A DNA stretch of 64,000 nucleotides from the NCBI GenBank assembly GCA_016203455.1, contig JACQMR010000015.1:137-64136 (forward strand), written 5' to 3'. Under the pieces are notes generated by a model. The model did no database searches. It saw only the letters and a list, made by a program, of their open reading frames with translations, and was not told where the DNA came from. Numbering within the stretch: the first letter of the stretch is position 1; each line of letters begins with the position of its first letter. The translations under genes and the position numbers were made by a program. Source of the DNA: Candidatus Wildermuthbacteria bacterium (lineage in GTDB: Bacteria; Patescibacteriota; Minisyncoccia; Minisyncoccales; UBA10102). Of this stretch, positions 1-15,317 are shown piece by piece.

Positions 1-139
1 AAGGAATAAAACTTTCGCGTCATAGAATCATGTTGGTTGGAAAGAAAGTTAAGGAATGAAAAATCAAAATACTAAAACTCAAGAAACTGCATACTAGTAA
101 ACTTCTTTAAACTAAGTTATCCACACGCCTTTGCTTATT

Positions 140-355
140 TCACGGTAATCTTAACATTGATTCTATTACCGAGAAAATTAACAAACTAACGCCACTACCA
201 ACGAAGACAAAATGTTCGTCTAATTGAACCCTCGCAAGATATTGCCCATAATCTGAGACTAAACCTCGAAACCTTTTTATGCCCCCGAAGTCAAAATATG
301 TAAAAGTATTATGTTTCAACATAAGATCAACAGCCTTTTTGTATATTGTAGGCAT
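140..355 (-). CDS. hypothetical small protein (71 aa)
   Basis: ORF track only; no motif recognised; divergent from the 473-4964 operon. Confidence 0.25.
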   Translation of the reverse strand: MPTIYKKAVDLMLKHNTFTYFDFGGIKRFRGLVSDYGQYLARVQLDEHFVFVGSGVSLLIFSVIESMLRLP

Positions 356-472
356 CCTGAAAATTCGGGTGTCATAATCTATACTCTCAAGCCTGCAGAG
401 TTGTCCGGATTAATCAAATATATCCTCGCATAGAAACATTCTTTTGTATCTTAAACGCCTTGGCATAAGAAT

Positions 473-1723
473 ATGAGTAATGTAAATAAGTTATATATGG
501 TCCAAAAAACAAATACCCTCATTGAGAAAGCTCGTAATGCATTATACTACAGGAAGCTGTGGGGTAGCGCGGCCATGTTTAAAGACTTTCCCTTAGCAAG
601 TAAAGACTTGTTTGATTCTCGAAAAATAAAAGAATCTTTGGCTGTGAACGAGGATCAAGTCGCATATTATTACTTTTCTGCCGGCACCACGAGCAATCCT
701 AAAATGATACCCTTTACTGAACATGAGTGGGTTGGGCGCGGAAAATATCGAAAAGAATGTTATGAAATCGCAACGATTAATAAGCGAGACAAGGTAGCTA
801 TACTTCTGCCCTTTGGCCCATGGGTAGCAGGTCCATCAGCGCAAACAGCGCTTTTTATGCTAGGGTGTACCGTATTCCCAATGGGTTTACTAAGTAATAT
901 TGATGAGATTAGGGAACGATTCTCGATTTTTCAAAAACACAACATTGGTGTTGTCATTACAACACCTAGTTTCGCGCAAAGATTACTCTACGTAAACGAA
1001 ATGCTCGGGCGCGAAACACGCATTAAAAAAATTATTACTTCTGGAGAATATATTAGCGACACCTTAAGAGAAAAACTCCATGATTCTTTTGGAGCCACTG
1101 TATACTCGTCGTACGCTTCAAGCGAAAGCTTTATCGGCATTGAATGCTCTATTCATAACGGGTTCCATTTCGATCCAAAACAGCTGATCGTGGAAACGAT
1201 AGACCAGCACACCTACCTGCCCACTCGAGGCGTGGGACTTCTTGTTATCACTTCGCTCGTTTCAGAAGCCATCCCCCTGATCCGTTATCCGTTAGGGGAT
1301 CTTGGCTTGATTGATTATGCCCAATGCCCTTGTGGGAGAAGTTGGCCAAGGATAATATGGGAAGGAAGAGTCCAAGAAACTTTTAAGGTTTCCGGCGGTG
1401 TCAAAGTACATTCATATCAGATTCGTGAGGCACTTTCAAAAAGCCATATTCCAATATGCCGGTGTAAAATAGAAGTATCGGACAACGAAATGGGAGAAAG
1501 TTTTGTAGTATTCAATCTTTACACGGCAACTGAAATCGGTACGCAAAAGCATGTATTGCTGGAAGAACTTTCCAGTTTATTGACCAATATGTCTATAGAT
1601 TTTAGCGATGTAGTGTATCATAAAATCGTACGCATGAGCATCGGTTTGATGTATGAAGAAAATGCGAAAAAAAATATGAAAATAAAGATAGAGGTGCTCG
1701 ACAAACAAAAGTATGCTAGATAG
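473..1723 (+). CDS. PaaK-like adenylate-forming enzyme (phenylacetate-CoA ligase / coenzyme F390 synthetase family)
   Basis: SAGTTSNPK adenylation motif, TSGEYIS, IRYPLGDLG, CPCGR, typical PaaK-family layout; 11-nt overlap with next ORF. Confidence 0.75.
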   Translation: MSNVNKLYMVQKTNTLIEKARNALYYRKLWGSAAMFKDFPLASKDLFDSRKIKESLAVNEDQVAYYYFSAGTTSNPKMIPFTEHEWVGRGKYRKECYEIATINKRDKVAILLPFGPWVAGPSAQTALFMLGCTVFPMGLLSNIDEIRERFSIFQKHNIGVVITTPSFAQRLLYVNEMLGRETRIKKIITSGEYISDTLREKLHDSFGATVYSSYASSESFIGIECSIHNGFHFDPKQLIVETIDQHTYLPTRGVGLLVITSLVSEAIPLIRYPLGDLGLIDYAQCPCGRSWPRIIWEGRVQETFKVSGGVKVHSYQIREALSKSHIPICRCKIEVSDNEMGESFVVFNLYTATEIGTQKHVLLEELSSLLTNMSIDFSDVVYHKIVRMSIGLMYEENAKKNMKIKIEVLDKQKYAR

Positions 1724-2843
1724 CGACATAAAAACGACTCTTACGAGGCTAAAGAGTACTAAGATATATGGAAACTTGTATGATGGCATAGACGATGTTC
1801 ATGATTTTACTCAAATTCCTTTTCTGGACGAAAGCAGAATTCGCAACGCTGATTTTGGTTCTCTCAAAAAAGAAGACAAAGGTTTATATGTATATTTTAC
1901 GAGCGGAACCACTTCTAAACCGAAGGCAATCTATTATAATGCAGATTCCATAGAATATGCTACGGAATATCTTAAATGGTTTTGCGAAATAGAAGGAATA
2001 GCCGAAAAAGAAAGGGTTGTTGTGCTAATGGACCAGTATTTCTGGGGTGTAGGATATTTTACTACCCAAGGACATGTACGCGCAGGGAATACCGTTATCC
2101 CAATTGATACAGATTTACCCAGAGAAGTAATAGGAGATCTTATAAAAGCTTCCCATCCTACCGTCATTTCGTCACTTCCATCGGTTCTCATCGAGCTCAA
2201 AGATGTCTTAAGGAGTCCAGATGTCAAAATATTGGAAACAACTGGCGAACTTCTAGCAAAACAGACGAGGCGCGAAATAGAAACATACTTCAACGCCGAA
2301 ATATTTGATGCTTATGGATTGACGGAAGGAATTATAGGGGTAGAATGTCGTTTCCATGACGGCTACCATTTTTTGCCGAACAAAGCTTATCTGGAGATAA
2401 TAGATCTAGAAACGGATAAGGTACTGCAAGAGGATAAATGGGGCGAGCTCGCAATAACTACTTTTTCTCATGCCGTTACCCCGATTACTAGGTATAAAAC
2501 AAAAGACATATGCAAAATATCTCAAAAAAAGTGTCCTTGCGGAGATAAAAGTCCAAGGGTTTGGGTAAAGGGAAGGAACCAAGAAACAATTCTTTTGCAC
2601 GAGGGTTCAGAATTGGCAGTCAAAGATTTAGAAGCCATCATTTCTAAAGTTTATGGCAAATTAATCAAACATAAGATCGATTTCCAAAAAGAGGGTAGTA
2701 CAACTATCTTGCGAATTTGGACTATCGATACTGACGCCGAAAAGACCAAACTGATGAAATCAAAAATAGTTAACTTCAATTACGAAACAATGCACCTCTC
2801 AAAACGGAACAAATTGCGCGTTGTTATTAACGGCGAAGTATGA
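1713..2843 (+). CDS. PaaK-like adenylate-forming enzyme, paralogue of the preceding gene
   Basis: TSGTTSKPK, AYGLTEG, ITRYKTKDI, CPCGD; ATGA overlap with next ORF. Confidence 0.75.
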   Translation: MLDSDIKTTLTRLKSTKIYGNLYDGIDDVHDFTQIPFLDESRIRNADFGSLKKEDKGLYVYFTSGTTSKPKAIYYNADSIEYATEYLKWFCEIEGIAEKERVVVLMDQYFWGVGYFTTQGHVRAGNTVIPIDTDLPREVIGDLIKASHPTVISSLPSVLIELKDVLRSPDVKILETTGELLAKQTRREIETYFNAEIFDAYGLTEGIIGVECRFHDGYHFLPNKAYLEIIDLETDKVLQEDKWGELAITTFSHAVTPITRYKTKDICKISQKKCPCGDKSPRVWVKGRNQETILLHEGSELAVKDLEAIISKVYGKLIKHKIDFQKEGSTTILRIWTIDTDAEKTKLMKSKIVNFNYETMHLSKRNKLRVVINGEV

Positions 2844-4018
2844 ACTTACACTTTCTGTGGAGAGAACATTATGTGGATTATCTTTGGGCGAGCAATGTTA
2901 CGGCGCAAGCGTACTTTTTGCATAGCGGCGTGTTGCTTTATGAAGATGGTGTTTTGACCGCCTATGCCTCTGATCAAGAATTAAAAACAGTTCAGAAGAC
3001 GACCGCTCATCTCATAAAAAATCCAAAGAAGATACTGCAGCTTAAAAAGGAATTTCAAAAGATGCGAGAAAAGACAAACAAAATGTCTCCTCGTTATACA
3101 AAGCAAAATATACAAAAAGTCGCAAGCAAAGAGCTGTATAAGTTATTCCTTGAGTTGCTATCTCTCATTCAGGAAATGATAGTGACCTACCGGCTTACGG
3201 AGCCGCACTTTGTTAAGCATATTGAAGAGATGGCCTTGAATGCCGTGCATTCCAAGCTAGTACACTACAAAAATCCGGGAAAACTTTTTTCGCGCATAGT
3301 AGCAGACAAAAGCTGCCTTCTTTCCAAAAAATACGGAATCGACACAGAAGGATTAAAGCTGATAAAGCTTATGCATCGCGTTGCCCAAATGCGCTTTAAG
3401 GCAAAACGGACGAGTTTTTCTGTTGGCGATTATGCCGAATTGCTCTTGCGAGAAACAGCTAGAAGAACATATCTTGCAATTCCACAAGTATCAAATTTAC
3501 AACTACAAGAGCTTAAATCCCTACTTCTTGAAGGCAAAGAGCCGAATTTAACATCAGTCAATAAAAGACAGAAAAATTTCGCGCTTAAAATATGTATGGC
3601 GGAATCCCCGCATGCGAAAGAAGTGTCAAATACGGAACTCCAGAATCTCATTCGTTATGAACGCGATCAATCCCGGGTAACTTCTTTCAAAGGGTCAATA
3701 GCCTATCCAGGAAAAGTGGTGGGCGTGGCGCGTGTTTTGCCGCTCATATCAACAACTCACGAGTACAAACAATATATGTGTAGTCTTAAAAAAACGGATA
3801 TTCTCATTGCTCCCATGACCGCGCCAAGCCTCACGCGGGCATTTTCTATAGTCAAAGCAGTGGTGACTGACGAAGGGGGATTAATGTCTCATGCATCCTT
3901 AATAGCAAGAGAAAAACAGATACCTTGTATTATTGGAACGAAAATCGCAACCCGTGCATTGCACGATGGAGATACAATAACAGTTGATGCAAATAGCGGC
4001 ATTGTAACAAAACATTAA
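2840..4018 (+). CDS. PEP-utilising-enzyme mobile (phosphohistidine swivel) domain protein with unassigned N-terminal ~280 aa
   Basis: C-terminus VTDEGGLMSHASLIAREKQIPCIIGT...DGDTITVDANSG matches the swivel His domain of PEP synthase/PPDK/rifampin phosphotransferase. Confidence 0.75.
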   Translation: MNLHFLWREHYVDYLWASNVTAQAYFLHSGVLLYEDGVLTAYASDQELKTVQKTTAHLIKNPKKILQLKKEFQKMREKTNKMSPRYTKQNIQKVASKELYKLFLELLSLIQEMIVTYRLTEPHFVKHIEEMALNAVHSKLVHYKNPGKLFSRIVADKSCLLSKKYGIDTEGLKLIKLMHRVAQMRFKAKRTSFSVGDYAELLLRETARRTYLAIPQVSNLQLQELKSLLLEGKEPNLTSVNKRQKNFALKICMAESPHAKEVSNTELQNLIRYERDQSRVTSFKGSIAYPGKVVGVARVLPLISTTHEYKQYMCSLKKTDILIAPMTAPSLTRAFSIVKAVVTDEGGLMSHASLIAREKQIPCIIGTKIATRALHDGDTITVDANSGIVTKH

Positions 4019-4028
4019 AAAACTATCT

Positions 4029-4964
4029 ATGTTTACGGTCGCATTAGAGCAAAAAAATATTAACCGTGAAGCCCTCAAACATATAGGAGGAAAAGCCCTT
4101 CCGCTTTTTGAGTTGCGCGTATATAAAATTCCTGTACCAAAGGGGTTTGCAATAACCACGAAAGCATACGGCCTTTTCTTAGAAGCAAACGGCATCACAA
4201 ATGACATAAAAAAGCTTTCTCAAGTGAAATCTCATCCTGCTATTCAAAAAAAAGTAGCAAAAATCAGGAATTCTATTCTTAATGGCAATATCCCAAAAGA
4301 GATGGAGTTTGAGCTACATGACCGCCTTGCGCAGTACGGATTAAAACACTATGTGGTAAGATCCTCGGCAAATGTGGAAGATGCGGGCACAAAATCATGG
4401 GCCGGCGCGTTTGAGAGTTATTTGAATATCCCGCAAAAAGATGTTCTCAGCGCTGTAAAACAATGCTGGGCTTCTGTATTTAATGACAGGGTTATCCATT
4501 ACATAAACAATATAAAGCGGCTTGCGTCCATAAAAATGGCTGTAATCGTTCAAGAATATATCGACAGCGATATCTCGGGCGTATGCTTTACCAGAAACCC
4601 CCTTGACTCAAAAGATAACAATATCTTGATAGAAGCAGTGTTCGGGCTCGGAGAACTTCTTGTTCAGGGCGAAATAATACCAGACAAATATAAAGTAGAG
4701 CGGGAGAGCAACATTATTCTTGAGGCTGATGTGCAAGAACAAAACAGAGCTACCAAGGCAGCAAAAAACAGCGGTACAAAATTGGTATCCATGCAAAAAA
4801 GTTTGAAACAAAAACTCTCTGGAAGACAAATCATCGAGTTGGCAAATATAGCTCAAAAAATAGAGCGCATTCACGGCAAAGGGTGCGATATTGAGTGGTG
4901 CAGAAAAGATGATGTATTCTATATTGTACAATCTCGGCCCATTACTACTAATCGGAAAAGATAG
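4029..4964 (+). CDS. PEP/pyruvate-binding (PPDK_N, ATP-grasp) domain protein
   Basis: GGKALPLFEL, VVRSSANVEDAGTKSWAGAFESYLN, MAVIVQEYI, DIEW... typical of the N-terminal nucleotide-binding domain of PEP synthase family. Confidence 0.75.
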   Translation: MFTVALEQKNINREALKHIGGKALPLFELRVYKIPVPKGFAITTKAYGLFLEANGITNDIKKLSQVKSHPAIQKKVAKIRNSILNGNIPKEMEFELHDRLAQYGLKHYVVRSSANVEDAGTKSWAGAFESYLNIPQKDVLSAVKQCWASVFNDRVIHYINNIKRLASIKMAVIVQEYIDSDISGVCFTRNPLDSKDNNILIEAVFGLGELLVQGEIIPDKYKVERESNIILEADVQEQNRATKAAKNSGTKLVSMQKSLKQKLSGRQIIELANIAQKIERIHGKGCDIEWCRKDDVFYIVQSRPITTNRKR

Positions 4965-5311
4965 TACACAGGTTAAATTGACGAGATACCATATTTATGG
5001 CAAAAAACTACTGCCTACTCATGAAGAGTGGGGTTCTTTGTATAGAGATGCTGATTGGAGAGGACGCATTTTTTAAAACAAGGGAAGAAATTGGAAAAAG
5101 CTCATCTCTTCGGGAGATTCTGACAGGATTTACATGAAAAAAAGAATCTCCGAATGAAACGCGAGACAATACGCCTATCCAGTGTCTCATTTGTCTTGTC
5201 CTAGTAGTAGAACTTCGTTCACTGGGGGACAGGTTTTGTGCTAAAATAGACCCGACCGAGACGGGTCAGGGGAGTATCCTTTAAAGTCCTCAAAATCCCT
5301 CTTATGCAGGA

Positions 5312-5332
5312 TGTGCAAGTCCGACTTGCACA
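5312..5332. repeat. palindromic hairpin element, copy 1 (TGTGCAAGTC-N-GACTTGCACA)
   Basis: 10-bp perfect inverted repeat; same core at 6614, 18146, 20195. Confidence 0.7.
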
Positions 5333-5383
5333 GCTTACACACTAATTGAAAAGAAAAATCGCCTGACGCCTATTTTCCTTTTT

Positions 5384-5641
5384 ATGAAATTCCATGTGTA
5401 TATCGTTGAGTGCGCCGACCAATCGTTGTATACCGGATGCGCGAATAATCTTGCCAAGCGGCTCAAAGAACACAATCAATCAAAGAGGGGAGCTCGATAT
5501 ACAAAAGCCAGGCGGCCGGTTATGTTAAAATATACCGAGGCGTTTACCAATATAAAAGATGCCAGGAAACGCGAGGCGGAAATAAAACGCTGGTCCAGAA
5601 AAAAGAAGCTCAACCTGATCACATTCAAATCCCCATCTTGA
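5384..5641 (+). CDS. GIY-YIG nuclease family protein
   Basis: FHVYIVEC..SLYTGCANNLAKRLKEHN...REAEIKRW, classic short GIY-YIG (URI) domain. Confidence 0.8.
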   Translation: MKFHVYIVECADQSLYTGCANNLAKRLKEHNQSKRGARYTKARRPVMLKYTEAFTNIKDARKREAEIKRWSRKKKLNLITFKSPS

Positions 5642-5684
5642 AAACAGAACTCAACCAATAGAAAATCTGATTTTTATTCATACT

Positions 5685-6131
5685 ATGGCAAAAGAAAGAT
5701 TTAAAATAACACCTGCGGTATACTTGGTGTTAATCAAAGAAAATGAAATTCTTCTTTCCAAAAGATATAACACAGGATATTTTGACGGGTATTACAGTTT
5801 TCCGGCAGGACATCTTGATGGCGGTGAAACACTCACGCAAGCCATGGTGAGGGAAGCAAAAGAAGAAGCGGGGATTGATATTACGCCAGAAAACTTACGC
5901 CTTGTTCATACTATGAACAAATTAGTCCCGGGCAACGAACGGATTGATTTCTTTTTTACAACCGAAAAATGGCGAGGCGAACCAAAAAACATGGAACCGG
6001 AAAAGTGCAGTGATCTTAGCTGGTTTGGCCTCAACACCCTGCCCGAAAACATTATTCCCTACATACAACAGGCGATTGACTGCGTTATGAAAAACATACC
6101 ATACAGCGAACGGGAAGGTACGGAGCAATAA
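5685..6131 (+). CDS. NUDIX hydrolase
   Basis: Nudix box GHLDGGETLTQAMVREAKEEAGI. Confidence 0.85.
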   Translation: MAKERFKITPAVYLVLIKENEILLSKRYNTGYFDGYYSFPAGHLDGGETLTQAMVREAKEEAGIDITPENLRLVHTMNKLVPGNERIDFFFTTEKWRGEPKNMEPEKCSDLSWFGLNTLPENIIPYIQQAIDCVMKNIPYSEREGTEQ

Positions 6132-6149
6132 ATACAGAAAGCATCACAC

Positions 6150-6614
6150 ATGGACACAGAAGCATTGCGCGAATTTCTCATTGAAAGCAACAAGCAAGGA
6201 TACGCCGCGGGAAAAGAAATCACCACAGAACCAGACGGGTCTCATGCAATTTTCTTTGCGAAAGGGGATTGGAAATCGCATGACAACTTTTTTGGCGGGG
6301 AGCCCTATGGCGGGAGAATAGCGGTTTCTTACAAAGGAAAATCCGTATGGATAATGGTGTATTATGGACGGGTTATAGAAAACGAGAATCCAAACGCCAT
6401 ATACGCTGTCTTAAGAAATGCCCTCATGCGTATGCCCGAAGAACACCCCTTTAGAGGCCCCGAAAAATATGCCAAGGGAAACCTTGCATACACAAACTCC
6501 TGGACGGGCGTTCTGGAAAAATTCTCCGGAGAGGAACAAATCACGCGAGACGGAAAAGTCATATACGAAGCCCGCTATATGGGAGGACTTGTTGATCAAA
6601 GAGAAGGAATATGA
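6150..6614 (+). CDS. conserved hypothetical protein (154 aa)
   Basis: clean ORF with short gap to neighbours; no motif I can name with certainty. Confidence 0.5.
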   Translation: MDTEALREFLIESNKQGYAAGKEITTEPDGSHAIFFAKGDWKSHDNFFGGEPYGGRIAVSYKGKSVWIMVYYGRVIENENPNAIYAVLRNALMRMPEEHPFRGPEKYAKGNLAYTNSWTGVLEKFSGEEQITRDGKVIYEARYMGGLVDQREGI

Positions 6615-6640
6615 GCTGTGCAAGTCGGACTTGCACAGCT
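6614..6640. repeat. palindromic hairpin element, copy 2 (13-bp perfect stem)
   Basis: AGCTGTGCAAGTC-G-GACTTGCACAGCT, starts at the stop codon of the preceding ORF. Confidence 0.75.
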
Positions 6641-6707
6641 TGACAATAATTCAGGATTTGACAGATATCGCTTCCTCATATACTAGTAGAATCAGTTTTT
6701 AATCCAG

Positions 6708-7340
6708 ATGGCAAACAGGGGGGGGAGCATGTCATACGAACAATATGAACAAACTGCCGCAAGCATACAGATGATGGTTAGAGGGACTATCATCTACATA
6801 TCCGGCGGGGTTTATGATATTTTTCGCGGAGAAGGATCTCAAAGAAACCTCCAACTGCTAATAAACTCTTTTCCGACTCTTGCCGAACGCGCCGCACAAG
6901 CGCGAAAGCACGCCGTATCCTACAGGGGGTTCCATGTAGGTTGCGCGGCTTTAGCATCAAATCCCGAAGAAAAAGGGGCAGACCAGACCGCAATCTTCTT
7001 AGGGTGCAACGAAAAGACGGCGTCTGACGCGCAAACCGTCTGCGCGGAACGGGTGGCCGTGCAGAGCGCGTTGGCATGGGGATATCGCCACATTGTGGCA
7101 ATTGCAATTGAAGGCCCTCCCCAAGAAGACCACGGAAGCGGCATTAAAAGCCCAACTCTGCACCCCTGCAAAGATTGCCGCGCGGCATTCCAATATACTC
7201 CCAATGTATCCCCCAATACATATATAATCACACTCAATCCAATGAGCGGACAGGGGCAAATATGCCTCTTTCGCGAACTTATCCTAATTCACCACGGTCC
7301 AAACCATCTTCAATGGCACGCTCTTGGCCGCCCTACCTAA
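6708..7340 (+). CDS. cytidine/deoxycytidine deaminase-like zinc enzyme with N-terminal extension
   Basis: CAERVA (Zn ligand + catalytic Glu) and HPCKDCR (PCxxC) motifs; alternative ATG at 6729; locally GC-rich. Confidence 0.65.
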   Translation: MANRGGSMSYEQYEQTAASIQMMVRGTIIYISGGVYDIFRGEGSQRNLQLLINSFPTLAERAAQARKHAVSYRGFHVGCAALASNPEEKGADQTAIFLGCNEKTASDAQTVCAERVAVQSALAWGYRHIVAIAIEGPPQEDHGSGIKSPTLHPCKDCRAAFQYTPNVSPNTYIITLNPMSGQGQICLFRELILIHHGPNHLQWHALGRPT

Positions 7341-7401
7341 CAGAGGCGGCCGTTTTCTTTTGCTTCTTTTCATGCGTACCGCCCCCGTGATACAAAGAAC
7401 T

Positions 7402-7830
7402 ATGCAAAAGTACACGCTTGGATTCATTTTTACCCAAGACCTGTCCCGCGTGCTTCTTGTGGAAAAAAATAGGCCGGAATGGCAAAAAGGAAAACTTAAT
7501 GCCGTTGGCGGAAAAATAGAAACGGGAGAAGCAAGCATCGCGTGCGTAGTACGCGAAATTTTTGAAGAAACCGGACTTAAAACCACAGAAACCGACTGGA
7601 TATTCTTTGGAGAACTGCGTGGGAAAACATGGCAAGTGGACGCGTATGTTCTTTTGCACCAGGGCGACCCAAAAGACGCGGTGACAAAAACCGATGAAAA
7701 AATACAATGGTTTTCGGTGAAAGACATACCGGAACACGCGCTGGATAACATTCCCTGGCTTATTCATCTCGCGCTTGATAAGATACGGCATAACGAGTTT
7801 AAAAATTTCTTTATACAATATCACGCATAA
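7402..7830 (+). CDS. NUDIX hydrolase
   Basis: Nudix box GGKIETGEASIACVVREIFEETGL; start moved to MQKYTLGF (ORF track start 7324 overlaps previous gene). Confidence 0.8.
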   Translation: MQKYTLGFIFTQDLSRVLLVEKNRPEWQKGKLNAVGGKIETGEASIACVVREIFEETGLKTTETDWIFFGELRGKTWQVDAYVLLHQGDPKDAVTKTDEKIQWFSVKDIPEHALDNIPWLIHLALDKIRHNEFKNFFIQYHA

Positions 7831-7834
7831 AAAT

Positions 7835-8596
7835 ATGTTTGACCTCGCCAACAAAGTAGCAATGGTAACCGGCGCCAGAAGGGGAATGGGCAAGGCCCAC
7901 GCCTTAGCATTGGCCCGGCAAAAAGCCAGTGTTATTGTTACTGACATTAACAAAGACGAGTGCCAAAAGGTGGCAGATGAAATACAAGCCGGCGGGGGAA
8001 AAGCAATAGCTTTCCAGATGGATGTTACAAACGCAAAAGAAATACAAGCCGTCTTTCAAGAAGCGATAAGAGCATACGGGAAAATAGATATACTGGTGAA
8101 CAACGCGGGAATCTTTTTTCAAAAACCCGCGCTTGAACTCACGGAACAAGAATGGGATCAAACCTTGAACATCAACCTGAAAGGGCAGTTTCTGTGCGCC
8201 CGGCAGGCCGCGAAAGAAATGGCAAAACAAAAATGGGGCCGCATTATAAACATTGCTTCCATTGCTTCCGGGCAAGTTGGCATTGGGTTTGCGGGCGCGG
8301 CTCACTACGCGGCCTCAAAAGGCGGCATCATTGGCATGACAGAGTCCCTGGCCGCGGAATGGGCTTCTTTGGGCATTACCGTTAATGTCGTGGCTCCGGG
8401 GGCCATTGATACGCCCATGACTCCTGTGGCAGATATGTCAAAAACGGAATTGGATTCCATTATATCCAGAATCCCTATGAAAAGGGTGGGACAAGCCAAA
8501 GAAGTAGCGTCTCTCGTGGCATTTCTCGCCTCGGAAGAATCAAGCTACATAACCGGCTCCACCTTCTTTGCGGACGGCGGCTGGCTCGCTTCGTAG
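7835..8596 (+). CDS. SDR family oxidoreductase (FabG-like)
   Basis: TGARRGMGKA, NNAG, YAASKGG (YxxxK); start moved to MFDLANKVAMVTGA. Confidence 0.9.
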   Translation: MFDLANKVAMVTGARRGMGKAHALALARQKASVIVTDINKDECQKVADEIQAGGGKAIAFQMDVTNAKEIQAVFQEAIRAYGKIDILVNNAGIFFQKPALELTEQEWDQTLNINLKGQFLCARQAAKEMAKQKWGRIINIASIASGQVGIGFAGAAHYAASKGGIIGMTESLAAEWASLGITVNVVAPGAIDTPMTPVADMSKTELDSIISRIPMKRVGQAKEVASLVAFLASEESSYITGSTFFADGGWLAS

Positions 8597-8800
8597 AAAA
8601 TTCAAAAAATATCTTTTCGCGATATAACCGAACGCGTCTCGGCTTTTTTAGGTTCTCCGTTGTTATGGACTGTCTTAACAGCGGAAATTTGACGGGAATA
8701 TTAAAAACCTATATGGTATTATTCCAATAAAGTTATTGGAAGCACCTACCACAATGCAATATATACTGGCAAGGAAAACCCCTGACGCAAGGAGGAGTGT

Positions 8801-10162
8801 ATGCCAAACCAGAACTATGAAGACGAGGAACTAGCTCTTCCGGAAGACGCGGAGGAAGAGGAATACGACGACCCCGAAGAGGGGGCCCAGAGAAATTCAA
8901 TACAAGAATATCTCAATGCCTTGCCAAAAAATCTGCTAACCCGCGAGAACGAAGCAGATATTGGAAGGGCCATGGAAACGGGAGCATACCTGAAAAAGCT
9001 AGAGCAGAGTATGCACGAAATCCATGGGCATCCCCCAGAGGCATGGGAAATCGTTTCCCATATTCTCCAACTTCTCTCAAAGGAACTGCCTCTTGTTAGT
9101 GCCTTGAGACAATCTTTGGGCCTGCATCCCGGCTCCACCCTTATGCATGCCATGGAAATTCGCGATGCCATTGACGGGGTCATAACCACGGAAACGGACA
9201 TCGTGAAAAGAGTAGCTCAAGTTCTCAACGAGAAAGCAGAAAAAACCGCGGAACGAATCATCGCTCTGTCGTGCGGGCTACGGCTACTGCCTCCCGAAGC
9301 AACAGACATCATGGGAAGCACGCCGCTACTGGAATTAGATCCAGATGACATACTTCTCAACTCCCGCAACGCGCTGTTCCGCCCCTACTACCGCAAAATC
9401 CATGCTGACGCAAAAGCGGCCGCGATTCGGCTGACGGAATACAACCTGCGGCTGGTTGTAAGCATCGCCAAACGATACCGCGGCAAAGGTGTTGAACTCC
9501 TGGACATGATTCAGGAAGGCAACATGGGTCTCATGCAGGCGGTAAAAAAGTTCAGCTATCGCCGAGGAAACAAGTTCAGCACCTACGGCAACTGGTGGAT
9601 CCGTCAATTCGTCGGCCGCGCGTGCGCAGAACAAGAGTACTTAATCTGCGTTCCGGCAAAAGTTCAAACTGATATAAAAGAAGTCCTCCGGGCGCGCAGA
9701 GATTTTCTTCAAAACAGCGGACGCGAACCGAGTCCGGAAGAACTGGCAGAGATACTCGGGGAAACCGCTGACCATGTGAGCAAAACCCTGCGGGCCCAAT
9801 ATATTCAGCACACACAATCACTTTCCCTGCTGGTTGGTCCCGAAAATGACACCCCCATTGAGGATTTCCTGGCAGACCCAAACGCAATAGACCCTGGAGA
9901 TATCATCGCAAACACGCCATTGAATTATCGTGCCCTCCAGCAAATCTTACTGGAAGCGGGGCTTACACCCCGCGTGTTTGAGGCCATATGCGCGCGCTTC
10001 GGCATAAACGAAAGCGGCGCCGCCAAAACACTGGAAAAAACAGGATCACAACTCGGTGTAAGCCGAGAGCGGGCCCGCCAGCTGGAGGCCAAGGCCATGA
10101 AAGCTCTGCGGCAGCCGGCAATACAAGAGAAACTTCAGAAATTTTTTGGACTCATGCCATAA
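8801..10162 (+). CDS. rpoD: RNA polymerase sigma-70 family factor (RpoD-like) with acidic N-terminus
   Basis: region 2 YNLRLVVSIAKRYRGKGVELLDMIQEGNMGLMQAVKKF, WWIRQ, region 4 GVSRERARQLEAKAM; RBS AGGAGG upstream. Confidence 0.85.
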   Translation: MPNQNYEDEELALPEDAEEEEYDDPEEGAQRNSIQEYLNALPKNLLTRENEADIGRAMETGAYLKKLEQSMHEIHGHPPEAWEIVSHILQLLSKELPLVSALRQSLGLHPGSTLMHAMEIRDAIDGVITTETDIVKRVAQVLNEKAEKTAERIIALSCGLRLLPPEATDIMGSTPLLELDPDDILLNSRNALFRPYYRKIHADAKAAAIRLTEYNLRLVVSIAKRYRGKGVELLDMIQEGNMGLMQAVKKFSYRRGNKFSTYGNWWIRQFVGRACAEQEYLICVPAKVQTDIKEVLRARRDFLQNSGREPSPEELAEILGETADHVSKTLRAQYIQHTQSLSLLVGPENDTPIEDFLADPNAIDPGDIIANTPLNYRALQQILLEAGLTPRVFEAICARFGINESGAAKTLEKTGSQLGVSRERARQLEAKAMKALRQPAIQEKLQKFFGLMP

Positions 10163-10189
10163 AGGAAAGCCGTAGCTTTCCTTTTTTTC
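10163..10189 (+). terminator. intrinsic terminator after rpoD
   Basis: GGAAAGC-CGTA-GCTTTCC followed by T7. Confidence 0.6.
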
Positions 10190-10223
10190 TTTCTGCAGAA
10201 GCAATCGGCACAGCACCTCCGTC

Positions 10224-10250
10224 ACTGTTGCTACAGCACCTTCGGCTTGA
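10224..10250 (+). repeat. 27/28-nt conserved intergenic motif, copy 1 (CACTGTTGCTACAGCACCTTCGGCTTGA)
   Basis: near-identical motif at 12123 and weaker at 33944; 3' end supplies a -35-like TTGA. Confidence 0.5.
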
Positions 10251-10280
10251 TTTATTCTTAAAACACAGTACATTTGGAGC

Positions 10281-11534
10281 ATGAATGCCATATCTCAAAA
10301 CAATTTCTTTGATGTAATCGTTGTTGGCGGAGGGGCTTCCGGAATGATGGCCGCGGGCAGGGCGGGGGAGCGGGGCAAACGGGTGCTTTTGCTTGAAAAA
10401 AACAGGGAACTCGGCAAAAAACTAAAAATCACGGGCGGGGGGAGGTGCAACATTACCAGCGCAGAATTCAACGCCAAAGAACTGCTCGCTCGGTACGGCA
10501 AAGCGGAACCATTTCTGCATTCTCCATTTTCCCAATTCGGCGTAAAAAACACATTCTCTTTTTTTGAATCCAAGGGATTGCCCCTTGTCGTACAAGAAAA
10601 CAAGCGCGCGTTCCCCAAAACGGAAAAGGCGCTTGATGTCTTTCGCGCGTTGGAACGCTATCTTTCAAAAAATCATATCGCCATACAAACCGGCGCGAGA
10701 GTTTCTCAAATCCTCACCAAGGACAAAACCGTCTCCGGCGTTCTCGCCAATGGCAAAGAGTACGGGTGTTCCTCTGTTATTTTGGCATCCGGCGGCATGT
10801 CTCATCCGGAAACCGGGTCCACCGGAGACGGTTTTGCAATGCTGAAAAACCTGGGTCATTCCGTGCAAACTCCAACGCCAAGCATTGTTCCTTTAACAGT
10901 TCAAGATCCGTGGGTGAAACGATTGGCGGGAATATCCTTGCCCTTGGCCCGCATATCATTTTTCCTCAATGGAAAGAAAATCTTTTCAAAAACAGGAGAA
11001 ATCCTGTTTACCCATTTTGGACTATCCGGCCCGTGCGTGTTAAACAGCGCGCAAAAAGTGGGGGATATGCTCCATGAAGGAGAAGTAACCGCGGCCATTG
11101 ACCCGTATCCAAATGTAAGCTGGCAAACGCTGGAAAAACAGATTCTCAACGCGTTCCAGACAAACCCAAACAAAACAGTTGTAAACGCTCTCAAAAAGAT
11201 TCTTCCCCAAGGAACCGCGCGCGTATTTTCTTTTTTGGTTCAGGGCGTGACAGGAAAAGAAAAGAGCAACAGCGTTACCCGAGAGCAAAGAGACCGTATC
11301 GCCCATGCCCTGAAAAACCTGACCGCAACCGTTACCGGCCTTATGGGGCTAGACAAAGCCGTGGTTGTAGACGGCGGAGTGGATCTCAAAGAAATAGACA
11401 CGAAAACCATGCAATCAAAACTATGCGCCAACCTCTTTGTAACCGGAGACCTCTTGCACATCAACAGACCTTCGGGCGGATACTCCCTGCAACTCTGCTG
11501 GACAACGGGGTATGTTGCGGGAAATAACGCGTAG
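10281..11534 (+). CDS. HI0933/BaiN-like NAD(P)/FAD-dependent oxidoreductase
   Basis: DVIVVGGGASGMMAAG dinucleotide fold, GGGRCNIT, C-terminal GGYSLQ...TG motif typical of the family. Confidence 0.85.
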   Translation: MNAISQNNFFDVIVVGGGASGMMAAGRAGERGKRVLLLEKNRELGKKLKITGGGRCNITSAEFNAKELLARYGKAEPFLHSPFSQFGVKNTFSFFESKGLPLVVQENKRAFPKTEKALDVFRALERYLSKNHIAIQTGARVSQILTKDKTVSGVLANGKEYGCSSVILASGGMSHPETGSTGDGFAMLKNLGHSVQTPTPSIVPLTVQDPWVKRLAGISLPLARISFFLNGKKIFSKTGEILFTHFGLSGPCVLNSAQKVGDMLHEGEVTAAIDPYPNVSWQTLEKQILNAFQTNPNKTVVNALKKILPQGTARVFSFLVQGVTGKEKSNSVTREQRDRIAHALKNLTATVTGLMGLDKAVVVDGGVDLKEIDTKTMQSKLCANLFVTGDLLHINRPSGGYSLQLCWTTGYVAGNNA

Positions 11535-11622
11535 GAGTATACTAGAAAACAGGAAAATAGGAATTAGCTGGTAGCTTATAGAAAATTTTCCATGCAATGC
11601 AATAGATAACTAATAAAAACTT

Positions 11623-12078
11623 ATGAAACAATTATTCATCGGGATTGTTCTTCTGGCAATCCTGGGAGTAGCGGGATATTTCCTGTCTCCAAACAAAAAA
11701 AGCGGGGCAACGCAAGAACAACCTAATCAAAATCAAGAACCCATGGCAGACCAATTTCAAATTGAGGACATAACAATAGGGGAAGGCAAAGAGGCAGTCG
11801 CGGGATCTCTCATTACCGCGCACTACACCGGAACCTTCAAAGACGGAACAAAGTTTGACAGCTCTCTTGACCGCGGAACTCCGTTTGAGTTCATGCTCGG
11901 CAGAGGCCAGGTTATCAAGGGCTGGGATGAAGGATTCGCGGGCATGAAAGAAGGCGGCAAAAGAAAACTCACCATACCCTATGACCTGGCGTATGGAGCG
12001 CAGGGAAGGCCCGGCATTCCGCCTTTTTCCACGCTCATTTTTGAAGTAGAACTGATCTCGGTACAGGCCGCGGAATAA
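11623..12078 (+). CDS. FKBP-type peptidyl-prolyl cis-trans isomerase with N-terminal membrane anchor
   Basis: [38 protein letters not shown]...LIFEVEL. Confidence 0.9.
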
Positions 12079-12122
12079 ATTAGTCCGCGCCTTTGGACTC
12101 CTAAAAATCCATGGGCGCTCGG

Positions 12123-12150
12123 CACTGTTGATACAGCGCCTTCGGCTTGA
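12123..12150 (+). repeat. 27/28-nt conserved intergenic motif, copy 2
   Basis: CACTGTTGATACAGCGCCTTCGGCTTGA; overlaps -35 of the promoter below. Confidence 0.5.
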
Positions 12151-12175
12151 CAGGCAAGAACCCCCGGTCTATAAT
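12147..12175 (+). promoter_or_regulatory. consensus sigma-70 promoter TTGACA-17-TATAAT
   Basis: TTGACA 12147-12152, 17-nt spacer, TATAAT 12170-12175. Confidence 0.55.
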
Positions 12176-12330
12176 ACAGGTGGAAGGGAAGAGCAAGGGT
12201 TCGTCTCCTTGCACATTAACCCCTTCTAAAACAAGCGAACTTCAAAGTTCCAAACGCGCCTTAAAGCCGCGAATGGAGCGCACGAAGCTCGCCAACCAAT
12301 GTTCGCACCCGATCCAATCAAGAAATAGTC
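12176..12330 (+). promoter_or_regulatory. ~155-nt structured leader or small RNA of unknown class
   Basis: lies between the consensus promoter and a strong terminator hairpin; nested stems (GAAGGG/CCCTTC around GCAAGG/CCTTGC; GCGAAC/GTTCGC enclosing three short hairpins); no credible RBS-preceded ORF. Confidence 0.3.
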
Positions 12331-12369
12331 GAAAAGAGAAAGACGCCCCAAAGGCGTCTTTCTCTTTTC
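12331..12369 (+). terminator. terminator/attenuator hairpin upstream of the tRNA-binding protein gene
   Basis: GAAAAGAGAAAGACGCC-CCAAA-GGCGTCTTTCTCTTTTC, 17-bp stem with U-rich 3' arm. Confidence 0.6.
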
Positions 12370-12405
12370 TATTGCGCAAATGAAAATACAAGATATACTT
12401 AAACC

Positions 12406-12726
12406 ATGGCAACCGTTGAAGATCTGCAACATATAGGATTGAAAACCGCGAAAATCCTGGAGGCAGACCGGGTGGAAGGATCGGAAAAACTTCTCAAGCT
12501 CCAAGTTTCTCTGGGAGAGGAACGCAGACAAATTGTGGCAGGCATAGGAAAAACACACAGCCCCGAATCGCTCATCGGGAAAACCATTGTCATTGCCTCC
12601 GCTTTAGAACCAAGAATGCTCATGGGCATAGAGTCGCAGGGAATGTTGCTGGCGGCAAGCAAAGACGGGGAACCGGTACTCCTGACAACAGAACACGAAG
12701 TGGAACCGGGAACAGCAATACGATAA
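12406..12726 (+). CDS. tRNA-binding domain protein (CsaA/EMAP-like OB fold)
   Basis: GLKTAKILEADRVEGSEKLLKLQVSLGEERRQIVAGI...IESQGMLLAA. Confidence 0.8.
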   Translation: MATVEDLQHIGLKTAKILEADRVEGSEKLLKLQVSLGEERRQIVAGIGKTHSPESLIGKTIVIASALEPRMLMGIESQGMLLAASKDGEPVLLTTEHEVEPGTAIR

Positions 12727-12743
12727 CTCACTAACAAACAACC

Positions 12744-13514
12744 ATGACGGAACAACTCAAAAAATACCTCTCTATAGCCGGGATCGCGGCCCTGGGAACA
12801 TTCTCTCTTGCCGCTCTTCAGTTTGGATCTTCATATTCAAGAAGCGTAGACCAGAATTTATCTCGGAGTTTCTCCGCGACCGCGCAAGGAGAAGTAACCG
12901 CCATACCGGATGTGGCGACATTTAGCTTTGGCGTACTCACGCAGGGCAATCTGGATCTCGGCGTTTTGCAGGAAGAAAACGCCAAAAAAACAACCGCGGC
13001 CATTGAATATATAAAGTCAAAAAGCGTAGAAAGCAAAGATATTTCCACGCAATCATATTCCGTGGAACCCCGCTACCAGTATTACAACTGCGGGAATGAT
13101 ACCTCCGTATGCCCGCCTCCAGATATTGTGGGATACACGGTTTCTCAACATATCCTAGTAAAAGCGCGGGACTTTGCGGTAGCCGGAGATCTCCTCGCCG
13201 GAGTGGTGAAAAACGGTGCCAACTCGGTTTCCCAGCTTTCTTTCTCTCTGGACGACCCGGAAGAGGCGCAAAACGAAGCTCGAGCAAAAGCAATTGCCAA
13301 AGCAAAAACAAAAGCCCAGATGCTGGCAAAAGCAGGGGGCTTTAGCGTTGGACGGCTTCTTTCAATCCAAGAAAATCAAGACATGCCCTACCCGTATCCC
13401 GCGATCTATGAAGCATACGGCAAGGGAGGAGCCGATTCAGCGCCGGTTCCTTCCATAGAGCCGGGATCCCAAAAAATACGATCTACCATAACGCTTGTAT
13501 ACGAAATCCGCTAA
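12744..13514 (+). CDS. SIMPL (DUF541) domain protein, secreted/membrane-anchored
   Basis: N-terminal signal anchor; family-typical layout ...GYTVSQHILVKARD...ARAKAIAKAKTKAQMLAKAGG...IEPG. Confidence 0.75.
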   Translation: MTEQLKKYLSIAGIAALGTFSLAALQFGSSYSRSVDQNLSRSFSATAQGEVTAIPDVATFSFGVLTQGNLDLGVLQEENAKKTTAAIEYIKSKSVESKDISTQSYSVEPRYQYYNCGNDTSVCPPPDIVGYTVSQHILVKARDFAVAGDLLAGVVKNGANSVSQLSFSLDDPEEAQNEARAKAIAKAKTKAQMLAKAGGFSVGRLLSIQENQDMPYPYPAIYEAYGKGGADSAPVPSIEPGSQKIRSTITLVYEIR

Positions 13515-13537
13515 CACAGTAAAATTCATAGACGAAA

Positions 13538-13708
13538 AATGAACACTTGGGGTATGCGAGGAACCGCTGCTTTCTAGCGAGCTCTCGCAGGCGGTTTTGC
13601 ATGGTCCCGAACAGCAGTGAGGGAAAACCGCCGAGAGTGCAACCCGTCCGCCCCGCTGGGGGCGGAATGTGGTGGTCGCAGGAAAACAGCGGGCAGAGCA
13701 TACCCTGA
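13538..13708. ncRNA. candidate structured RNA, class and strand unknown
   Basis: GC-rich gap between convergent genes. Closing stem GGGTATGC/GCATACCC plus CCGCTG/CAGCGG. Internal helix CTCTC..GGCGGTTTT/AAAACCGCCGAGAG. 8-bp hairpin TCCGCCCC-GCTG-GGGGCGGA. Confidence 0.3.
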
Positions 13709-13736
13709 AACTTACAGAAAATTCAAACAAGCGAAT

Positions 13737-14297
13737 TCACACCCGTTTTACATATTCGCCGGTTTCCGTGTTCACCTCAATTGTATCTCCTTCCTCCACA
13801 AACAAAGGAACCTGTATGTTTGCCCCGCTTTCTAAAACCGCGGATTTTGTGCCTCCTTGCGCCCTATCTCCTTTGATTCCAGGCGGGGATTCCACAACTT
13901 TGAGCTGAACTTTAATTGGCGGGGCAATATTGATAATTTTGCCCTCAAACCGGATGCCCTCCACCACTTCATTGGGCTTTAAGAACGAAACGGTTTCCCC
14001 AACAAGCTCTTGGGGCAGTTCAAATCTCACGGCGGGGTTGTCATGCTCCACAAATACAAACTTACCCCTGTGATTGTACAAAAACTTTGCCTTAAACTTT
14101 GAAAGTTCAGCTTCATCAAACTTGTCTGACTGGTGAAAGTTTCTGGGGATAACCTTTCCGGTAATCAGATTGCGAACCTTGGTTTGAACCACAGACACAT
14201 CCTGCGCTTTTCTCATCTGTTTCCACTCCAACACTTCATACGGCTGGCCCTCCAGCATGAACAGTACGCCTTTTCTTAGATCAAAATAGGTAAGCAT
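13737..14297 (-). CDS. efp: elongation factor P
   Basis: MLTYFDLRKGVLFMLEGQPYEVLEW... full-length EF-P pattern; start moved to M21 of the ORF. Confidence 0.9.
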   Translation of the reverse strand: MLTYFDLRKGVLFMLEGQPYEVLEWKQMRKAQDVSVVQTKVRNLITGKVIPRNFHQSDKFDEAELSKFKAKFLYNHRGKFVFVEHDNPAVRFELPQELVGETVSFLKPNEVVEGIRFEGKIINIAPPIKVQLKVVESPPGIKGDRAQGGTKSAVLESGANIQVPLFVEEGDTIEVNTETGEYVKRV

Positions 14298-14360
14298 AAT
14301 GGTAGTTTTTAGTTTGTAGTGTTTAGTTTTTAGAAAAGACTGCCTTCGGTATCGCAACCT

Positions 14361-15317
14361 TTACTCCAAAACTTTTCCCATGATGTCTTTGTGGCCTAAA
14401 AGGAACTCGCGCGCTGACATTGGTTTTCCTCCTTCTGCCTGAAGTTCTTCAATGACAAGCGCGTCTTTCCCGCATGCGACCGCGAATGAATTCTGAAAGG
14501 GGAGTATGGCGCCGGGATGCCCGCCTTCAAGAACTTCAACGTGGGCATTCAGTATCTTTATTATCTTGCCCTCCAAAAGTGTATAGATGCCGGGCCAAGG
14601 AAAGAACGCCCGCATCCGCCTCTCTATATACAAGGCATCTTTAGTCCAGTCAATGCGGCCGTCTTCTTTCTCAATTTTCTTTGTAAATGTTGCTAAGCCA
14701 TGCTTTTGCGGTATTGCCCGCAAGGTTCCTGATATCCAGCCGGGCAGTATCTCAACCAGCAAATCTCCCCCGATATCCGCCAAACGGTCGTGCAGTTCCG
14801 GATACAAGGGTCTTCCTTTTCCAAGTTTGAACTGATCAGATTCCATGAGGCATTCTCTTTGAATGATAACGGGGCCGTGATCTATTTCTTCGTCCATCTC
14901 CATGATACTCACGCCGGTCTTCTCCTCTCCTAAAAAAATGGCGTATTGAATCGGGGAAGGCCCGCGAAATTTGGGAAGCAAAGACGGATGCGCATTTAAA
15001 GCTCCGCGCGGAGCAACTTGAAGCAGAGCCCCGGGTATGATTTTCCCATACGCCGCCAGTAAAAGAATGTCCGGGCGCACTTCTTGAATTCTCGCCACAG
15101 CTTCTATGCCCAACTTCTCTGGCTGGTATACAGCAATATCATGTTCCAGAGCAACTGACTTAACGGGCGGGGGAGTGAGCGTTTGCTTTCTACCCACAAG
15201 AGCATCCGGGGCGGTAACAACAAGCGCGGGAGAATACCCTCCCGCGATTAGTTTTCGCAGTATGCGAGCGCCAAACTCCGATGTTCCAAAAAATACAACC
15301 CTTACCATGTCTACCAT
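14361..15317 (-). CDS. fmt: methionyl-tRNA formyltransferase
   Basis: VVFFGTSEFG, NAHPSLLPKFRGPSPIQ, C-terminal formyltransferase domain. Confidence 0.9.
   Translation of the reverse strand: MVDMVRVVFFGTSEFGARILRKLIAGGYSPALVVTAPDALVGRKQTLTPPPVKSVALEHDIAVYQPEKLGIEAVARIQEVRPDILLLAAYGKIIPGALLQVAPRGALNAHPSLLPKFRGPSPIQYAIFLGEEKTGVSIMEMDEEIDHGPVIIQRECLMESDQFKLGKGRPLYPELHDRLADIGGDLLVEILPGWISGTLRAIPQKHGLATFTKKIEKEDGRIDWTKDALYIERRMRAFFPWPGIYTLLEGKIIKILNAHVEVLEGGHPGAILPFQNSFAVACGKDALVIEELQAEGGKPMSAREFLLGHKDIMGKVLE

Follow-up and report, generated by a model that had tools for sequence, protein, structure and literature searches.

A conserved four-gene module of paired ligases and a putative two-subunit dikinase in CPR bacteria, with a possible role in polyamine-derived conjugates

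We analysed a 64,000-nt stretch of DNA (hereafter, the window) from a metagenome-assembled genome labelled Candidatus Wildermuthbacteria, which is part of the candidate phyla radiation (CPR; Patescibacteria), and found a module of four genes, g1 to g4, that recurs in other CPR bacteria. Two of the genes encode paralogous adenylate-forming ligases, and the products of the other two resemble the subunits of a dikinase. We propose, with moderate confidence, that this CPR-restricted enzymatic module assembles or modifies a polyamine-derived conjugate by ligation and phosphorylation. CPR bacteria have minimal genomes in which few biosynthetic pathways are recognisable, and the strict conservation of a six-to-eight-gene investment in such genomes suggests that the product is needed by these organisms. 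Domain identities, conserved catalytic motifs, operon coupling, synteny and a gene fusion were read directly from the sequences.

Organization and conservation of the module

The four genes are intact, translationally coupled open reading frames (ORFs) that span positions 473-4964 of the forward strand. The first, g1 (473-1723), encodes a divergent PaaK-type adenylate-forming ligase of 416 aa, and g2 (1713-2843) a paralogous ligase of 376 aa. The 392-aa product of g3 (2840-4018; identical to NCBI protein HY482_02565) is the His-carrier and presumed substrate subunit of the dikinase, and the 311-aa product of g4 (4029-4964) is its stand-alone ATP-grasp (nucleotide-binding) subunit. An earlier reading of this stretch (hereafter, the original prediction) had described four tightly coupled ORFs in a reduced-genome host, and both statements agree with what we found. 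The ATG of g2 at 1713 precedes the TAG stop of g1 (1721-1723) to give an 11-nt overlap, g2 and g3 share an ATGA overlap (2840-2843), and a 10-nt gap separates the TAA stop of g3 (4016-4018) from the ATG of g4 at 4029.

We gathered loci from contig look-ups of homologues and from scans of GTDB representative genomes and JGI metagenomes, and compared them through ORF-level BLAST and clustering. The order g1-g2-g3-g4 was strictly conserved, at 35-56% identity, in 17 non-redundant CPR loci (the window, L001, L002, L004, L005, L006, L007, L009, L023, L024, L028, L031/L105, L033, L034, L103, L104 and L106), usually with overlapping or abutting stop and start codons. All taxon labels given were those of CPR bacteria (Wildermuth-, Moran-, Andersen- and Peribacteria, Minisyncoccales and 'Saccharibacteria'). 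The g4 gene lies directly downstream of g3 in 16 of the 17 full loci and in four of five fragments, the fifth of which (L030) is cut off inside g3; at L004, the two are parted by a 2OG-Fe(II) oxygenase gene on the opposite strand. Chance does not come near to explaining an arrangement in which four genes keep one order across 17 non-redundant loci. The original prediction had named a lack of co-conservation in other genomes as grounds for refutation, and these loci show the opposite. Full-text literature searches found no description of such a four-gene module. At one locus (L007, 2142-3320), g3 is split into two ORFs of 170 and 216 aa, which reflects either a frameshift or an assembly error.

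Ligases and dikinase subunits

Both ligases matched Pfam AMP-binding (PF00501) above the gathering cutoff (E 7.7e-15 for g1 and 3.8e-19 for g2) and shared 30% identity over 277 aa (E 3e-35), in line with the view that they are PaaK-type paralogues. An alignment of 25 sequences places them in the PaaK-like subgroup of the ANL superfamily, with the P-loop (S/T)GTTxxPK and a downstream YxxxE motif, and shows that both keep the C-x-C-G...P-R/K motif and a lysine-rich C-terminal motif. The P-loop of g2, FTSGTT(S/G)xPKA, is near-invariant in 14 orthologues, one of which has FTGGTS; orthologues of g1 were found in all full-length loci. By homology, both enzymes would form acyl-adenylates.

Neither ligase scored as a PaaK equivalog (TIGR02155; 58.9 bits for g1 and 92.3 for g2, cutoff 646.3). 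The best NCBIfam family for the pair was DVU_1553 (118 and 135 bits, cutoff 300), and all NCBIfam matches of g1 were far under cutoff. In addition, PF14535 (AMP-binding_C_2) was absent from the g1 and g2 families and present in genuine PaaKs recovered by the same searches. Relatives of g1 (~30 protein clusters, 34-56% identity) and of g2 (~47 clusters, 40-54% identity, all given taxon labels being CPR) were followed by a sharp score drop to ordinary PaaKs, and each ligase forms a compact CPR-only clade.

The closest PDB entries to g1 were PaaK (9s3l and 4r1l), followed by two ester-forming ligases, AjiA1 (6wuq) and 6siw, the latter of which we take to be NatL2 of nataxazole biosynthesis; NCBIfam neighbours of g1 and g2 included BagE/FevW and FlxY. 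The AjiA1, 6siw, BagE/FevW and FlxY ligases hand the acyl-adenylate straight to a hydroxyl or amine, and not to coenzyme A (CoA). Because g1 and g2 are without the PaaK-type C-terminal signature and their nearest characterised cousins beyond PaaK make esters or amides, the acceptor of the acyl group is probably an amine or hydroxyl and not CoA.

For g4, Pfam returned PPDK_N only (E 1.2e-75), as expected for the ATP-grasp domain alone that had been predicted. Its best PDB match was the ATP-grasp domain of Listeria rifampin phosphotransferase (RPH; 5hv6 and 5fbs, E 4e-50), and HpeI (9goj) was matched with E 1e-27. For g3, Pfam assigned PEP-utilizers (PF00391) to residues 317-387 (positions 3788-4000; E 3.5e-22) and nothing to residues 1-316. 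This swivel domain contains the motif TDEGGLMSH (T343 to H351, with His351 encoded at 3890-3892), which is invariant across 20 family members and fits the swivel signature T/SxxGGxxxH of two-component dikinases (PMC12167813). The original prediction assigned g3 nothing beyond the swivel domain, which is present but is only part of the recognisable region: NCBIfam models of RPH, PigC and RedH align from residue 216-238 to the C-terminus, and the C-terminal end of the RPH structures aligns with residues 216-392. Residues 216-316 (3485-3787) are thus an RPH/PigC-like linker and arm. Taken together, these matches make g3 and g4 look like a two-subunit His-swivel dikinase, whose chemistry is proposed by homology.

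The remainder of g3, residues 1-215 (2840-3484), is a family-restricted domain without a structural match, and the region left unassigned by the original prediction therefore shrinks to ~215 aa. An AlphaFold2 model of full-length g3 (pLDDT 91.4) gave Listeria RPH as top Foldseek matches (E 3e-10, TMq 0.45). When residues 1-280 were modelled alone (pLDDT 91.3), no significant PDB match was found (best E 0.29; RPH E 1.1, TMq 0.31). Because residues 1-280 alone find nothing significant, the RPH match of the full-length model must be carried by residues ~216-392, and we withdrew the assignment of the N-terminal domain as RIF-binding-like (that is, rifampin-binding-like), which had come from the full-length match. 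Searching residues 1-280 with phmmer against 1.84 billion representative proteins yielded only 37 matches at E<=1e-3, nearly all of them 380-500 aa long and none a single chain of ~850 aa. The full-length relatives of g3 number about 20 (382-402 aa, 37-52% identity). Seven polar residues of the N-terminal domain are invariant or near-invariant (E9, E47, R185, K189, E205, R209 and Q216). RPH uses a conserved Gln plus Arg/Glu/Lys at its second phosphotransfer site (PMC4844700), and we infer by analogy only that the residues of g3 are candidates for such a site.

Swivel-His proteins also occur in other arrangements. In candidate division Kazan bacterium RBG_13_50_9 (L010, 7325-20035), seven co-directional swivel-His paralogues of 352-623 aa, one with an N-terminal helix-turn-helix (HTH) domain, surround a single PPDK_N gene. 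Similar arrays contain five His subunits in archaeon GW2011_AR5 (L019) and three in a Komeilibacteria locus (L013). In CPR and DPANN genomes, a single ATP subunit thus seems to serve a range of subunits with different substrates. Such a modular kinase system ('one ATP module, many substrate modules') would be previously undescribed. Three distant relatives of the g3 swivel (P0026, P0052 and P0097; ~580 aa) carry N-terminal DNA-binding domains of the HTH_3/HTH_31 type, which suggests that such proteins are phospho-His-coupled transcription regulators.

Gene neighbourhoods and the proposed pathway

In 13 of the 17 loci, if a remnant in the window is counted, the module is found with a class I/II aminotransferase gene, whose ~400-aa products share 42-65% identity with one another. 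The remnant, a pseudogene at 125-487 on the reverse strand, retains ~115 N-terminal codons, and its 5' end overlaps the start of g1. We compared the aminotransferases of seven related loci with the window by tblastn, and found that query residues 1-128 only were matched (40-57% identity, E 1e-21 to 1e-29). In-frame stops occur at 410-412 (TAA), 140-142 (TGA) and 107-109 (TAA), and tblastn detected no aminotransferase similarity below position 125 or elsewhere in the window. We also looked in positions 1-140 and in the gap at 4965-5383 for traces of Amidohydro_2, SpeE, SpeD and the missing part of the aminotransferase, and nothing scored below E 0.04.

Polyamine genes, namely AdoMet_dc/SpeD, Spermine_synth/SpeE and pyruvoyl arginine decarboxylase (PvlArgDC), adjoin the module in 9 of the 17 loci, and NCBIfam equivalog models confirmed the SpeE, SpeD and PvlArgDC assignments, several of them above cutoff. 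They often form an overlapping series g4-SpeE-SpeD-aminotransferase (L009, L031/L105 and L034), and PvlArgDC lies upstream, divergently in L031/L105 and L034 and co-directionally in L006. At L105, the complete cluster (PvlArgDC, g1-g4, SpeE, SpeD and aminotransferase) spans 7129-14753. SpeD paralogues of CPR bacteria can act as decarboxylases of ornithine or arginine (PMC10407285), and the whole spermidine pathway is therefore plausibly encoded where a cluster contains two SpeD homologues. Furthermore, a g2-type ligase and a Spermine_synth domain are naturally fused in a 605-aa protein (P0152). The original prediction saw no partner acyl carrier, CoA-utilising enzyme or transporter beside the four genes. 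This picture is incomplete: it overlooked the decayed aminotransferase just upstream, and relatives of the module do have partners, including polyamine-biosynthesis enzymes, Amidohydro_2 and assorted phosphohydrolases. Within the 64-kb window itself, tblastn found no polyamine genes.

The fusion protein belongs to a variant that carries the ligase pair only (L101/L102, 7465-10818), in which AdoMet_dc, a g1-like gene (39% identical to g1) and P0152 follow one another in this order, with neither dikinase nor aminotransferase. This variant adjoins HEPN and GmrSD defence-type genes and a phage-integrase fragment, neighbours that suggest a mobile island.

Phosphohydrolases beside the module are varied: His_Phos_1 (L104), LMWPc (L103), an alkaline-phosphatase-like Phosphodiest (L002), NUDIX (the window, L024 and L105) and CYTH (L001 and L009). 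At L004 (3554-4456), a 300-aa protein that has no Pfam match and contains RHGE and THGG, two motifs characteristic of histidine-phosphatase superfamily members, is encoded between two SpeD paralogues beside the module. A 43%-identical homologue of this protein is encoded inside the DPANN array of dikinase subunits (L019, 9799-10659).

We read the product as a polyamine conjugate because in relatives the module sits in spermidine/agmatine-type operons, travels with an aminotransferase and has a g2 that can fuse to an aminopropyltransferase; this part of the proposal, made by association, is held with lower confidence than the enzyme chemistry. In the proposed mechanism, g4 would bind ATP and pass the beta-phosphate to His351 of g3, with release of AMP and Pi. 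The swivel domain would then dock back onto the N-terminal domain of g3 itself and phosphorylate an oxygen (hydroxyl or carbonyl/enol) of a bound small molecule. Each of g1 and g2 would activate a carboxylate as acyl-AMP, the aminotransferase would supply an amino or keto acid partner, and the ligases would form one or more amide bonds to polyamine nitrogens. The phosphate would serve either to make a carbonyl reactive towards an amine so that the two condense, by a PigC-like logic, or as a transient protecting group that is later removed by a neighbouring phosphohydrolase, as in the Cre/Hpe pathways.

A more specific form of this proposal, which we put forward only tentatively, is a CPR-only pathway for a previously undescribed polyamine-derived metabolite, in which the ligases, one of which is at times fused to an aminopropyltransferase, acylate polyamine nitrogens and a miniaturised two-component dikinase, its substrate domain being structurally novel, phosphorylates or activates the conjugate. 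If this is the case, ultra-small episymbiotic bacteria could use the product as a new cofactor, as a head-group at the surface or on lipids, or for signalling. We also considered methionine salvage, in which the aminotransferase would act on keto-methylthiobutyrate after SpeE releases methylthioadenosine, and rejected it; it leaves the ligases and the dikinase unexplained, and no other salvage genes recur.

Several observations weigh against the polyamine-conjugate proposal. Eight of the 17 loci, the window included, have no polyamine genes within the available sequence. Four of these eight (type A: L001, L005, L007 and L104) carry Amidohydro_2 between g4 and the aminotransferase, and the closest relatives of the window are L104, L005 and L007; the type-A operon of L104 spans 1062-7583. 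An orphan g3 homologue (L008, 9989-11155) has no g1, g2 or g4 within 10 kb. Because the P-loop of g1 is degenerate in 2 of 11 orthologues (L034 and L031), g1 may not be catalytic everywhere; because the aminotransferase of the window has decayed, the pathway there may be reduced, incomplete or altered, or may be completed from elsewhere in the genome. The role of substrate site is assigned to the N-terminal domain of g3 as an assumption based on where it lies, no structure matching this domain significantly. The phosphohydrolase pattern is soft because NUDIX genes are common in these genomes, and some adjacency could be incidental because CPR genomes are small and gene-dense. Beyond the level of domains, the proposal rests on guilt by association.

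Among the other explanations, the likeliest is modification of a macromolecule or of the envelope, in which the ligases and aminopropyltransferases would place a polyamine-like or aminoacyl appendage on protein, lipid or peptidoglycan, and not on a free small molecule, and the target of the dikinase would be the acceptor or an intermediate. At L105, the module is flanked by two genes of the LPG_synthase_C type (2671-3600 and 15938-16852; an aminoacyl transferase domain like the C-terminal one of MprF), with homologues in L031 and L034; the polyamine genes and the fusion fit this explanation equally well, and the PaaK-like clade includes acyl-protein synthetases such as LuxE. However, LPG_synthase_C is restricted to one sub-lineage, the conserved core is without a candidate acceptor, carrier or membrane protein, and the characterised dikinases of the RPH and PpsAB types all act on small molecules. 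We regard macromolecule or envelope modification as unlikely. An un-annotated gene of ~360 aa also flanks the module in these Andersenbacteria-type loci (L105, L031 and L034).

It is quite unlikely, in our estimation, that the module serves aromatic or phenolic scavenging or fermentation on the model of PpsAB, CreHI and HpeHI. In this case, the aminotransferase would convert Tyr/Phe to aryl-pyruvates, the PaaK-like enzymes would make aryl-acetyl or aryl-carboxyl CoA thioesters, the dikinase would phosphorylate a phenolic hydroxyl, and Amidohydro_2 would be a phenolic-acid (de)carboxylase. The Amidohydro_2 family does include reversible phenolic-acid decarboxylases, both it and the aminotransferase recur as neighbours, and the best-scoring solved relatives of g1 and g2 are phenylacetate-CoA ligases. 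Moreover, all characterised two-component dikinases phosphorylate phenols (PMC12167813). However, the substrate domain of g3 is unrelated in sequence to the PRK08296 models, g4 is nearer to RPH than to HpeI, and the ligases score 59-92 bits against the PaaK cutoff of 646 and have no PF14535. We found no carboxylase, 2-oxoacid:ferredoxin oxidoreductase, CoA-utilising or ring-reducing enzyme in any locus compared, and the linkage to polyamine genes and the g2-SpeE fusion would be left unexplained.

Xenobiotic or antibiotic inactivation, with g3 and g4 as an RPH-like resistance kinase and their neighbours incidental, is very unlikely. RPH is the best solved match of g4 and gave the top Foldseek matches of full-length g3, and the relatives of RPH are numerous, a large family whose substrates are unknown (PMC4844700). 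Nevertheless, the RPH equivalog scores were 64-230 bits against a cutoff of 999, and the rifampin-binding domain was not recovered for g3 residues 1-280. Because the operon coupling with two ligases is invariant across the 17 loci, a pathway is indicated rather than a stand-alone resistance gene. Finally, the possibility raised by the original prediction itself, that g3 and g4 are together a pseudogene, frameshifted or rearranged, derived from an ordinary phosphoenolpyruvate (PEP) synthase, is refuted even though PPDK_N and PEP-utilizers occur in that enzyme and some NCBIfam matches bear its name, because both ORFs are intact and conserved with catalytic motifs invariant across 20 or more same-length homologues, the PEP/pyruvate-binding domain is absent, the split and gene order are conserved in every locus, and the N-terminal region of g3 is conserved and well folded in the model (pLDDT 91).

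A terminator-like hairpin at 5014-5032 on the forward strand, found by a consensus scan 50 nt past the stop of g4, is weak evidence for the operon end; terminator-like sites in the region were in modest excess (13, compared with 5.9 +/- 2.5 expected by shuffling). Sigma-70-like sites showed no excess (18 compared with 14.1 +/- 4.2), and no promoter is claimed. Rfam and tRNA scans of the window found nothing near the operon, only a tRNA-Lys at 59908-59983, and a PADLOC scan of g1-g4 matched no anti-phage defence model. A histidine kinase is encoded upstream of the module in L005, L009 and L031/L105 (with response regulators too in L105), and kinases are encoded near it in L034 and L103.

The GC content of g1-g4 is 0.385-0.411 (0.35-0.40 at third codon positions, GC3), compared with ~0.45-0.52 (GC3 0.46-0.55) for most flanking genes, and the operon stands out as a lower-GC segment at the contig edge (window positions 1-6000 compared with 6000-64000). 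The adjacent NUDIX gene (GC 0.42) also lies within the low-GC stretch. Recent horizontal acquisition is suggested by this low GC; however, a very recent insertion is not supported, because the module has flanking genes in common (DUF5680, 47% identical; HI0933-like, 61%) in the window and in the distantly related L002, and the two modules themselves share only 40-44% identity. Downstream of g4 are a GIY-YIG nuclease-domain gene (5384-5641), a first NUDIX gene (5685-6131), a DUF5680 gene (6150-6614; DUF5680 is near the module in L002 too), a cytidine/dCMP-deaminase-like gene (6708-7340) and a second NUDIX gene (7324-7830). In L024, NUDIX (two copies) directly follows g4, and L105 has NUDIX as well.

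Comparison with known systems

The closest precedents for a dikinase encoded as two subunits are PpsAB (phenylphosphate synthase), CreHI (4-cresol kinase) and HpeHI (hydroxyphenylethanone kinase). These form a two-component dikinase subfamily with a ~71-kDa substrate and swivel-His subunit and a ~40-kDa ATP-grasp subunit; neither subunit is dispensable, and nor is the His (Dexter et al. 2025, PMC12167813). As in g3/g4, the His subunit is encoded first and carries T/SxxGGxxxH, and the expected chemistry, ATP to AMP, Pi and a phospho-substrate, would be the same. The original prediction had cited phenylphosphate synthase as a precedent with the His subunit encoded before the ATP subunit; this precedent holds, and CreHI and HpeHI have since been added to it (PMC12167813). 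It follows that g3 and g4 are not 'order-swapped' relative to the known two-component enzymes. However, g3 (392 aa) is much shorter than HpeH (~640 aa, 71 kDa) and is not a ~70-kDa subunit with an N-terminus homologous to the RIF-binding domain (PRK08296-type). PRK08296 aligns with residues 263-390 only, and the first ~215 residues of g3 have no detectable sequence similarity to the PRK08296 models, which we presume to represent PpsA/HpeH. In addition, HpeI is less close to g4 than is RPH's ATP-grasp domain, and the genomic context here is one of polyamine genes and ligases in a CPR host, compared with aromatic catabolism for PpsAB, CreHI and HpeHI. If confirmed, the module would therefore extend two-component small-molecule dikinases beyond aromatic catabolism to a different phylum and metabolic context, with a presumed substrate-binding domain in g3 that has no structural precedent.

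Among the single-chain enzymes, RPH (5fbs and 5hv1) is the best solved match both for g4 and for g3 residues 216-392. Its swivel domain is C-terminal, after the substrate domain, and its swivelling mechanism, with AMP plus Pi as products, is established (PMC4844700); g3/g4 would share this phospho-His mechanism. However, RPH is a single 865-aa chain whose RIF-binding domain (residues 327-754) is not recovered in the N-terminal region of g3, and with the enzyme split here, g4 and g3 score 230 and 64 bits, far below the RPH cutoff (NF041857, 999 bits). PigC and RedH belong to the same domain family and also have a C-terminal swivel; their models align to g4 (~199-225 bits) and to the C-terminal part of g3. 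They are single chains of ~880 aa with cutoffs of 1300-1350 bits, far above the scores of g3/g4, and no pyrrole-pathway genes are present here. PigC, RedH and TamQ are prodiginine/tambjamine condensing enzymes in which ATP activates a carbonyl oxygen for pyrrole or amine condensation, a logic on which the coupling of a polyamine nitrogen with a carbonyl compound could plausibly be modelled.

PEP synthase and pyruvate phosphate dikinase (PPDK) share the PPDK_N ATP-grasp and PEP-utilizers swivel domains with g3/g4. They are, however, single chains with a PEP/pyruvate TIM-barrel, and Pfam detected no such domain in g3/g4, which scored 66 (g3) and 215 (g4) bits against the cutoff of 740 for PEP_synth (TIGR01418). 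The domain order given in the original prediction (ATP-grasp, substrate, His) applies to RPH and PigC, whereas PEP synthase and PPDK each carry their His domain centrally (PMC4844700).

As for the ligases, PaaK (4r1l, 2y27 and 9s3l) has in common with g1 and g2 the compact PaaK-type ANL fold, the P-loop, YxxxE and C-x-C-G...P-R/K, but the two share only ~28% identity with it, have no PF14535, form a clade of their own that is confined to CPR bacteria and are always found together as two paralogues. For g1 and g2, the best neighbours in PDB and NCBIfam include the ester- and amide-forming PaaK-like ligases (6siw, AjiA1, BagE/FevW and FlxY), at low similarity (E 1e-8 to 1e-15), and no aminohydroxybenzoate-pathway genes are present at the loci analysed here. 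Benzoxazole systems pair a ligase with an amidohydrolase, to which the Amidohydro_2 of type-A loci may be comparable; because this partner matches only uncharacterised PDB entries (3irs), the analogy stays a lead only.

If the polyamine-conjugate proposal is confirmed, the module would represent a new branch of polyamine metabolism in bacteria and would give His-swivel dikinases a further class of substrate, for which the g2-aminopropyltransferase fusion is a concrete experimental handle. Judged from sequence comparison, the split dikinase itself is an already known architecture, represented by the RPH relatives PpsAB, CreHI and HpeHI, and g3/g4 would be a divergent, shortened version of it. 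The features that appear to be undescribed are the short g3 with its orphan N-terminal domain, the obligate association with two divergent PaaK-type ligases, the confinement of the module to CPR bacteria and its location inside polyamine operons.

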